A program made the position numbers and the translations under genes. The notes under the pieces were generated by a model. It made no database searches and was not told the DNA's origin. It saw nothing but the letters and a program-made list of their open reading frames with translations. From sequence record MT446403.1: 53,648 bases of DNA, one strand, 5' to 3'. Within the stretch, counting starts at the first letter, position 1; each line of letters starts with the position of its first letter. The stretch is from Escherichia virus TH29. This document shows positions 49,675-51,031 of the stretch, one piece after another.

Positions 49675-49769
49675 GGTGGACGAGGTTGGGTTCGAACCAA
49701 CGACACATCTGTTCGACAGATTGCTCTACCTGACTAAGCTCTGGAGCAGACCTTCTGAGCTACTCGTCC
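49675..49769 (-). ncRNA. tRNA-like element (possible pseudo-tRNA or non-canonical tRNA, anticodon region CGA)
   Basis: Minus strand has a perfect 7-bp acceptor-like stem (GGACGAG/CUCGUCC), T-arm GUUGG-UUCGAAC-CCAAC, D-arm-like GCUU-AGUCAGGUA-GAGC and a 4-5 bp anticodon-like stem with loop GUCGAAC, but about 21 extra nt 5' of the D-arm. Confidence 0.3.
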
Positions 49770-50569
49770 AAAATTGGGTGGGTTTTGGTAACGCAGGTTT
49801 TCCCGAACTGCGAGGCTTGTAGAATCTGTGAGTCGCCTACTGTGTTTTGACATAACATGGGATTGATGGTCCCGACTCACTTCATCTCAGGTACGAGGCA
49901 CTACTTTGCGAGTGCAAGCAGGTGTTGAACCCAAGTACCAACAGGCAACCTAATTTATTCCACCGTTGTGGAAACCATTGGTTAGAGCAGTTTATTTCCA
50001 TGCTCCGGGCAATTCACTTTAAATGAATTAAGTTTGTACTCTGTCACATCCCTACGCGCACTGAGGGACTTAAGTCTGCATTACATCGCAGAATACAAAT
50101 TAATTAATGCTCCGATTTATTAATCACATCTCGAAGCCACAATGCGCCAAATTTGGTTACGTGGGGTTGGAAGACCACGGAGAGAACTTAAATTTAATTA
50201 AGCTGCAACTCGCATTTCAGAATCATTTGCATTTATTTTAAATGAATAAAACAGTCGCAATAACTCCAGGCAGTTTAGGCCCGTCGTAAGACTCAGAAAA
50301 CTACTTCAATTTGCACACAACAAATTTCCCAACATTGCCTTCCGTCGAAGGCTCATGCAATGGTGTTTGAATTATGTACAAATTGAAGCAACTTCAATGA
50401 ACACTCTTGTCTGGGCCACGAGCTTGGGCATCGACCTACCTCCCAACTCTAATCACAAGAATGCTCATTGAAGCCCACTCACTCTGGAATGGGTTCAAGG
50501 CAGCACCGGACAACTTCCAGTGCATGCCAGATCGATTTAGCTTAGCTTCTCAAGTTTGCTCTTGGCAAC

Positions 50570-51002: not shown

Positions 51003-51031
51003 GTCAGGACTGCTCTGATTTAACAAACAAC

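Follow-up and report, generated by a model that had tools for sequence, protein, structure and literature searches.

A non-canonical tRNA gene with an enlarged D-loop and a variable anticodon in Escherichia virus TH29

Transfer RNA (tRNA) genes of phages are usually explained by codon supplementation or, lately, by the replacement of tRNAs that host defences have cut. Either explanation presupposes a tRNA of canonical shape whose anticodon does not change. Escherichia virus TH29 carries a tRNA-like element that departs on both counts, on the minus strand at 49675-49769 of sequence record MT446403.1, and it raises the question of what kind of RNA such a locus would give and for what property it is kept. 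The record, 53,648 nucleotides (nt) long and called here the window, is the complete genome of a phiEcoM-GJ1-like coliphage (Chaseviridae, Carltongylesvirus). Judged by its sequence, the element is the TH29 version of the one tRNA-type gene that Carltongylesvirus phages carry, and a tRNA gene is already in databases at this locus, under a name that does not fit the allele of the window. A preliminary description had left the choice between a decaying tRNA, a non-canonical tRNA, and a tRNA-like processing signal or mimic. On balance we lean towards a non-canonical tRNA-shaped RNA that would be kept for its shape, with an accessory role and an anticodon free to change. As far as we could find, the architecture with its D-loop insert, the pattern of selection and the anticodon polymorphism have not been described in the literature.

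Architecture and conservation of the element

Read from 49769 to 49675, the minus strand gives GGACGAG-UA-GCUC-AG-AAGGUCUGCUCCAGAGCUUAG-UCAGGUA-GAGC-A-AUCUG-UCGAA-CAGAU-GUGUC-GUUGG-UUCGAAC-CCAAC-CUCGUCC-A-CC. The perfect 7-base-pair (bp) acceptor helix of the preliminary description was recovered as an inverted repeat (GGACGAG/CTCGTCC, 7/7 Watson-Crick), and its canonical T-arm (GTTGG-TTCGAAC-CCAAC, 49701-49685) and D-arm hairpin with the conserved GG are likewise present, the latter as a GCUC/GAGC stem with G18G19; this D-arm (GCTC...GAGC) carries AGTCAGGTA. The 21 extra nucleotides noticed earlier are there in that number, and their best place is inside the D-loop, after A14-G15, not at the junction of acceptor and D-arm, because U8-A9 and the first GCUC strand of the D-stem directly follow the acceptor, and because the SA91KD allele, which is without UAGUCA of the second copy, can use the first GCUC strand only. 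An anticodon-like hairpin exists as described; its reading as a 4-5 bp stem with the 7-nt loop GUCGAAC is one of several, since the 15-nt arm can be read as 5 bp with 5 nt, 4 bp with 7 nt or 6 bp with 3 nt.

Compared with a canonical tRNA, the acceptor stem with discriminator and CCA-type 3' end (7/7; A73-C74-C75) and the T-arm (5-bp stem, 7-nt loop with UUCRANY) are ordinary. The base after C74 C75 is C in the window and A in several relatives, in which CCA is thus encoded. The D-arm has its stem and G18G19, with a loop of 30 nt instead of about 7-11 nt owing to the insert. The anticodon arm has 15 nt instead of 17 (5 bp and 7 nt), and the anticodon is not conserved in orthologues (four triplets among the 28 copies compared). 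The earlier expectation that a standard scan would reject the element proved correct: ARAGORN with default settings called 0 genes, and Rfam at the gathering threshold gave 0 hits. A permissive Infernal scan of 451 nt matched the Rfam tRNA model RF00005 at 49685-49740 with 24.1 bits (gathering 29; E=0.0096), spanning model positions 9-63 only and with the anticodon loop aligned 2 nt short. When the insert was deleted in silico, default ARAGORN called a tRNA, Ser-cga in the window and Arg-tcg in relatives, by a fit that needs an A.G mismatch and no nt 26. These matches, with the conservation described below, mark the element as more than a chance structure. The predicted fold of the 95-nt RNA (-30.5 kcal/mol, z=-2.0 against shuffles) consists of the acceptor stem, the D-stem, a small insert hairpin, a 6-bp/3-nt anticodon hairpin and the T-arm. 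The zipping of the anticodon arm into 6 bp and 3 nt was dropped as an argument against decoding, since the arm of a canonical tRNA-Phe zips likewise in silico.

Of the 74 phage records matched by a 1-kb query around the element, 43 aligned with at least 80% of the query length. The comparative set was the locus from 26 phages, with 12 distinct alleles, and from two metagenomic contigs, 28 copies in all. The 146-nt region around the element is 85-97% identical to the copies of relatives. Over 93 nt, the element of the window differs from the MLP1/PYps23T allele at three inverted loop bases only; roughly a dozen differences, mostly in the insert, separate it from the GJ1 allele. The boundaries of conservation are the tRNA ends: the hypervariable leader stops at G1, and a variable trailer begins after N73-CC. 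The discriminator is A or G; after it comes CC in each of the 26 phages, and CU in one of the two metagenomic contigs. The paired stems are conserved in the related phages, with the four cloverleaf helices 100% paired in all 12 alleles and near invariant, the single change being G5-C68 to G-U.

Four-fold synonymous sites of two downstream genes in the same phages were used as neutral yardstick, and 11 of these 39 sites are variable (28%). The tRNA body, counted as 68 columns without the insert and positions 34-37, has three variable columns, at T-loop position 60 and at positions 68 and 73 (binomial P=5.6e-7), which speaks against the decaying tRNA of the preliminary description. It means that the body (acceptor, D-arm, anticodon stem, variable loop and T-arm) is under purifying selection. 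None of the 33 positions in the lower half is variable, which makes this half no less constrained than the top; what matters would thus seem to be the full L-shape, beyond a minihelix for RNase P. Columns 34-37 are all variable (4/4), two of them with three states (P about 0.006-0.011). By a conservative count of one inversion and two double substitutions, the rate at these positions equals or somewhat exceeds the neutral one; what can be said robustly is that constraint acts on the body and not on the loop. With the anticodon as the least constrained part, selection is unlikely to be for the reading of one codon. For the same reason, the anticodon being the only part that is not conserved, the mimic or processing-signal option gains weight. 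A parsimony count of events on the tree of the flanks was rejected as confounded by recombination, and the counts of variable and invariant columns were used instead.

The gene is accessory, and its clean loss is compatible with a viable phage. The element was kept in 28 of 31 genomes examined, and three viable Yersinia phages (PYps3T, 4T and 16T) are without exactly this element. The paper on these phages states that they 'lack exactly the tRNA gene', which it describes as 'a tRNA for arginine or leucine' (PMC8762354). We confirmed the deletion in PYps3T, where the conserved upstream block abuts the downstream ribosome-binding region almost directly.

Origin of the anticodon alleles and of the insert

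Among the 28 copies the anticodon is UCG in 22, AAG in three, UAG in two and CGA in the window alone. The corresponding loop pentamers are UUCGA (22), UAAGA (3, always with G73), UUAGG (2) and UCGAA (window only). The 15-mer of the window, AUCUGUCGAACAGAU, is the exact reverse complement of the common AUCUGUUCGACAGAU, so the three substitutions amount to one inversion of the 3-nt loop between 6-bp inverted repeats. The comparison of alleles thereby shows an origin of the window CGA by loop inversion in a perfect 6-bp palindrome. The anticodon CGA of the preliminary description is formally right for the window and is misleading as a description of the gene, being a private allele: in 22 of 28 relatives the gene has UCG at this place. 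In the common allele, the G-C closed pentaloop UUCGA equals the first five bases of the T-loop, and GUUCGA is repeated 20-21 nt apart; this coincidence may just follow from U33, UCG and A37.

The identity set of Escherichia coli ArgRS is A20, C35 and U/G36, SerRS needs a long variable arm, LeuRS needs A73, and AlaRS needs G3-U70. The element does not carry the ArgRS set: the D-loop has G18 G19 U20 A21, and the anticodon of the window is C34 G35 A36. The majority UCG allele has C35 and G36, still with U20. Because the window allele is without C35 for ArgRS and without a long variable arm for SerRS, the inverted allele is very unlikely to be a cognate decoder. Some reading of CGA codons by the majority UCG allele is conceivable.

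The element is the same gene as the 'tRNA-Arg' of ST32, Pel53, Ecp_YSF and PYps23T/16N. In phiEcoM-GJ1 the orthologous 95 nt (gt01) are annotated as 'tRNA-Arg, may contain an intron', and the ST32 paper gives 'a tRNA-Arg of 95 bp, without an intron' (PMC6266442). In Pel53 and Ecp_YSF, a 71-nt 'tRNA-Arg' from tRNAscan begins inside the insert and has a poor acceptor stem. Published descriptions of the tRNA-Arg of relatives mention no D-loop duplication, 15-nt arm or anticodon polymorphism, beyond the words 'arginine or leucine' (PMC8762354). With the loop inverted to CGA for UCG, the name tRNA-Arg is inapplicable to the window allele; it is wrong for at least six phages, the window phage included. 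Database names for the element vary by tool (tRNA-Arg, tRNA-Leu or none), and in some records spurious protein genes have been drawn across it on the other strand. Such opposite-strand hypothetical proteins are annotated across the element in the records of FXie-2024a (PP107930.1) and EcoM1 (PQ818760.1). The record named 'Staphylococcus phage Pel53' (PP952070.1; host S. hyicus) shares 94% identity with these coliphages across the 1-kb locus.

Most phages have the insert version AAGGUCUGCUCCAGAGCUUAG, and the GJ1 group has a second, AAGGUUUGCAUUGUGCUCAG. In the window, the insert with the preceding AGCUCAG forms an imperfect tandem repeat (AGCUCAG-AAGGU / AGCUUAG-UCAGGU), and the GJ1 insert (20-21 nt range) is bracketed by an exact GCUCAG direct repeat with a period of 20 nt. 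The repeats suggest that the insert arose when the 5' half of the D-arm was duplicated in tandem. The insert can fold as a small hairpin (AAG.UCUG-CUC-CAGA.CUU). Conservation of this hairpin was not established: it is 92.5% paired over the alleles, broken in the GJ1-type version, and without in-register compensatory change. Searches of phage, IMG/VR, metagenome and GTDB/bacterial collections gave no copy without the insert.

Descent of the element from an ordinary class-I tRNA is supported by its closest canonical relative, the tRNA-Phe(GAA) of Klebsiella phage KNP2, with 81% identity over 65 nt. Common to both are the D-arm UAGCUCAGUC-GGUAGAGCA, the GUGUC variable loop, the T-arm GGUUCGAAUCC and the 7-bp acceptor stem. 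Unlike the element, the KNP2 tRNA-Phe has no insert and a normal 17-nt (5-bp/7-nt) anticodon arm, and is accepted by ARAGORN and Rfam. This descent, together with the complete pairing of the four helices in the 12 alleles, agrees with the non-canonical tRNA that the preliminary description had listed. An origin from the host, as an attP copy of the 3' end of a host tRNA, was rejected, with no significant match in 5,426 E. coli genomes (best match 77%, E=0.6, to a plasmid tRNA-Asn). A search of 185,579 species genomes for a host origin also gave no match. A class-II reading with a long variable arm, suggested by the ARAGORN call 'tRNA-Leu(cag)' for GJ1, was rejected too, since it fits the GJ1-type insert only, has a 2-bp D-stem and fails in the window.

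Possible roles of the element

A tRNA-shaped RNA kept for its shape would be made in several steps. The element would be transcribed inside a long polycistronic transcript of the phage RNA polymerase, RNase P would cut at U(-1)/G1, and 3' trimming with CCA repair would take place at A73-CC. The mature RNA would have about 93-96 nt, with the insert retained as an extra hairpin projecting from the D-loop, and selection would be for its resemblance to a complete L-shaped tRNA and not for the decoding of any one codon. We also counted in favour of this explanation the tRNA-likes of an Erwinia relative, which have a canonical top half and a deviant lower half at the corresponding place. Several points weigh against it. 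Every step past transcription is deduced. Divergence is too low for any compensatory change in the four tRNA helices, so conservation must carry the argument. On the flank tree, loop alleles, insert versions and discriminators are scattered over the backgrounds, which indicates recombination, and since recombination shuffles the alleles, independent origins are not exactly countable. Counted as events, the excess of loop variability over neutral is modest. All four loop alleles retain U33 and a purine at 37, and where the anticodon is UAG, A37 has become G37, both as in a true decoder. The UCG of 22 of 28 copies and the CGA codon use of the window, 7.0 per 1000 or about twice the E. coli value, fit codon supplementation.

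The last of these points are what one expects from a working decoder with an anticodon switched by positive selection (Arg-UCG/CGA, Leu-UAG/CUA, Leu-AAG/CUU, Ser-CGA/UCG), which we consider rather unlikely while giving it real weight. Such a decoder would supply rare codons or replace host tRNAs cut by defences, with the odd D-loop and the short arm tolerated or protective against nucleases. CGA and CUA are classic slow or rare codons of E. coli, the full L-shape including the anticodon stem is conserved, CC(A) is encoded, and the changes are concentrated in the anticodon and not spread over the body. On the opposite side, U20 instead of A20, the absence of a long variable arm, and G73 with AAG though LeuRS needs A73 mean that a single body cannot receive Arg, Leu and Ser correctly. 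There is complementarity between G32 and C38 and between U33 and A37, the window CGA is explained by a single mechanical inversion, and the gene is dispensable. A further point in favour is that phage tRNAs are known to counter tRNA-cleaving defences (PMC10264068, PMC11555353). One more against is the 15-nt anticodon arm, which departs from the 5 bp and 7-nt loop of known active tRNAs (PMC7609411).

The same geometry, unlike that of a decoder, would suit a non-decoding decoy that blocks a host factor reading tRNA shape and anticodon loop, for example an anticodon nuclease, although we give this explanation a low probability. The loop would then be in an arms race, and the short arm and the insert would keep the RNA out of translation. 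A conserved body with a variable loop, and an accessory gene lost in some hosts with alleles exchanged horizontally between backgrounds, are consistent with it. The literature searches turned up no RNA decoy of an anticodon nuclease, and to our knowledge E. coli has no tRNA-Arg(UCG) or tRNA-Leu(AAG) to imitate. The excess of loop variation over neutral is modest, and no linked protein or host-range correlation supports the decoy. We regard as similarly improbable a wider form of the idea, in which an anticodon-variable, translation-incompetent mimic would titrate or block tRNA-targeting defence nucleases or another factor that reads tRNA shape, perhaps alongside the tag RNA like transfer-messenger RNA (tmRNA) described below, as a 'translation-interference' RNA cluster. 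The D-loop hairpin and the short arm would bar synthetases and ribosomes, and the loop would diversify and be swapped between phages.

The GenBank note of phiEcoM-GJ1 suggests an intron-containing tRNA, in which removal of the 20-21-nt insert would leave a tRNA of canonical length. The in-silico removal does give a tRNA accepted by ARAGORN, a direct repeat brackets the insert, and the interior of the insert is more variable than the exons. We nevertheless hold it to be very improbable. Group I introns in bacteria and phages have about 200 nt or more and lie in the anticodon loop, so that 21 nt in the D-loop are far too small, and Rfam intron families gave no hit at the locus. A bulge-helix-bulge motif consists of two 3-nt bulges separated by 4 bp; in the predicted fold, 2 nt and 9 nt are single-stranded between the D-stem and the insert helix, which is no such motif, and we know of no bacteria with the archaeal splicing endonuclease. 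The anticodon arm would still be 2 nt short after removal, and the authors of ST32 exclude an intron in the words quoted above (PMC6266442). Least credible of all is a decaying pseudogene or a functionless leftover of recombination. The non-canonical features, the dispensability in three phages, the 6-nt D-loop deletion of SA91KD and the rejection by standard scanners would suit it; the body far more conserved than synonymous sites, the lower half invariant against a hypervariable leader and trailer, and the retention in nearly all genomes do not.

If the RNA is made and stable, it would be either a decoding tRNA of unusual geometry, of interest to tRNA engineering and for gaps in annotation, or a natural tRNA mimic that does not decode.

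The surrounding locus and known tRNA-like systems

Table 1. Parts of the element and its leader in the window
Feature	Positions	Strand	Remark
Whole element: non-canonical tRNA gene, 93 nt to discriminator, with encoded C74 C75	49675..49769	-	orthologue of phiEcoM-GJ1 gt01
Acceptor 5' strand GGACGAG (nt 1-7), U(-1) before it	49763..49769	-	inverted repeat 7/7; invariant, 26 phages
U8 A9, D-stem 5' strand GCUC (10-13), A14 G15	49755..49762	-	invariant
21-nt D-loop insert AAGGUCUGCUCCAGAGCUUAG	49734..49754	-	6/21 columns variable
Remaining D-loop UCAGGUA (G18 G19 U20 A21) and D-stem 3' strand GAGC	49723..49733	-	invariant apart from SA91KD 6-nt deletion
Anticodon arm, 15 nt, AUCUG-UCGAA-CAGAU; perfect palindrome AUCUGU-CGA-ACAGAU	49707..49721	-	stem invariant
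Anticodon-position triplet CGA; reverse complement of UCG in 22/28 relatives	49713..49715	-	hairpin-loop inversion
Variable loop GUGUC, short, class I	49702..49706	-	same in KNP2 tRNA-Phe
T-arm GUUGG-UUCGAAC-CCAAC	49685..49701	-	position 60 alone varies (C/U)
Acceptor 3' strand CUCGUCC (49684-49678), discriminator A73 (49677), C74 C75 (49676-49675)	49675..49684	-	
5' leader directly before G1, hypervariable and length-variable	49770..49779	-	alignment of relatives

The stretch of about 920 nt from the stop of the upstream gene (50570) to the start of the 46-codon gene downstream (49650) has no conserved open reading frame (ORF), and the next ribosome-binding site is 25-35 nt downstream of the element. 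Copies of the promoter consensus of the phage RNA polymerase (CAUUAGUUGGAWGUGRA) were found at 206/348 and 53129/53271 (minus strand), and at 51004, 51336, 5021, 8152, 9002 and 11143. The first two pairs stand at opposite ends of the window and indicate a whole genome with direct terminal repeats. No phage-type promoter was found between 50570 and 49770 on the minus strand, the nearest being at 51004 and 51336 (minus strand), and a scan for sigma-70 promoters and terminators stayed at background level. Directly upstream of the element (49780-49822, minus strand) is a near-invariant block of about 43 nt, CUACAAGCCUCGCAGUUCGGGAAAACCUGCGUUAYCAAAACCC, which holds a hairpin (CGCAG-N11-CUGCG) and has no match to the phage promoter consensus; it is kept in all 26 phages and also in PYps3T, which is without the element. 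Further upstream there is an indel hot spot, at about 50022-50034 (minus strand) and at 50387-50467. GJ1, MLP1 and Mangalitsa have there an extra 172-273 nt, overlapping GJ1 gp30 and a 'superinfection immunity' ORF of Mangalitsa; this segment is not in the window, Pel53 or SA91KD, and the window has about 80 nt that GJ1 is without.

A tmRNA-like tag module lies about 340 nt upstream of the element (about 50304-50108, minus strand), with a 10-codon frame ANDSEMRVAA* at 50230-50198 preceded by AUAAAU. This block may be more deserving of study than the element. Its DNA sequence is conserved in unrelated phages (Erwinia Chaseviridae, Ackermannviridae such as PH4 and Magnus, 48-kb Klebsiella siphoviruses, and Vibrio phages), and the records examined carry no annotation for it. 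A motif filter for the tag kept 37 loci, to which an Erwinia locus without the exact 16-mer adds one; tag-bearing loci listed are L033-L037, L043, L048, L051, L054, L055, L063, L065, L072, L080, L088 and L091 in our numbering. Other tags are ANDSEMRVDA, ANDSEVLMAA, ANDDVVLMAA, ANEEVYLAVA, ANEEMYLAVA, ANDDQFLAVA, ANDEQFLAVA and ANDTEFKAAA, with synonymous differences between them. The tag is followed by a hairpin and pseudoknot and then by a terminal hairpin, and in members outside Chaseviridae the stop codon is in a hairpin loop. In a 12-sequence alignment these post-tag hairpins and the pseudoknot are 92.9% paired, and 11 pairs have compensatory changes in 30 cells, a level reached by none of 500 shuffles, with slid controls all far lower. 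Matches to tmRNA families are sub-threshold (19-27 bits, E 5e-4 to 0.05), ARAGORN made no call, and a relaxed ARAGORN tmRNA search, which recovered the same tag again, was otherwise discarded as giving mostly false positives. A tRNA-like domain closing around the tag was not found, and the literature search gave no paper describing the tag module, no description of the architecture of the element, and no expression data for this phage family.

Outside Chaseviridae, the tag block stands amid repeated long-stem cassettes and upstream of canonical tRNA genes. The cassettes have a long conserved stem (...ACAACAGGUAAGAGCAUUG / CAGUGCUCUUUCCGUUGUG...) around variable inserts of 40-110 nt, some with a T-arm-like GGUUCGAAUCC, and are interleaved with the tag block and canonical tRNA genes (L035, L036, L043, L054, L055, L063, L065, L080, L088, L091). 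In five siphovirus-type loci (L036, L037, L048, L051, L065) a TTGACA-17-TAGATT promoter lies about 25 nt upstream of the tag block. The element as the tRNA-like domain of the tag module was rejected, since it has A3-U70 and not G3-U70, and has its own closed acceptor stem and an anticodon-like hairpin. It was rejected as a base-pairing partner of the tag block, since shuffled controls pair as well or better, and as a partner of the module in general, since PYps3T keeps the tag block without the element.

In Erwinia phage pEa_SNUABM_27 (L033), three tRNA-like elements (about 1759-1832, 1905-1989 and 2040-2130) follow downstream of the tag block. They have a canonical acceptor stem and T-arm with deviant D/anticodon lower halves, and one is annotated as tRNA-Ser(gga). 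ARAGORN called none of the three, and Rfam gave 17-24 bits only, to the tRNA-Sec model. Chaseviridae may carry non-canonical tRNA-likes as a trait of the family.

Among known systems, tRNA-Sec, tRNA-Pyl, allo-tRNAs and mitochondrial tRNAs resemble the element in being tRNA-derived with arm lengths off 7/4/5/5 (PMC7609411). None of these classes has a D-loop hairpin or an anticodon arm 2 nt short, and their anticodon is conserved; the review of such tRNAs gives the anticodon stem as 'consistently' 5 bp with a 7-nt loop (PMC7609411). Membership of the element in the families of the tmRNA tRNA-like domain, bacterial YrlA, the T4 stable RNAs C/D or the viral tRNA-like structures is not established. 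Like them, it keeps the tRNA shape with a free 'anticodon' region and would stand in a longer transcript beside other structured RNAs. Unlike them, it has a cloverleaf that is complete, closed by an acceptor stem of its own and with an anticodon-like hairpin, and it has neither G3-U70 nor a Ro-binding stem.

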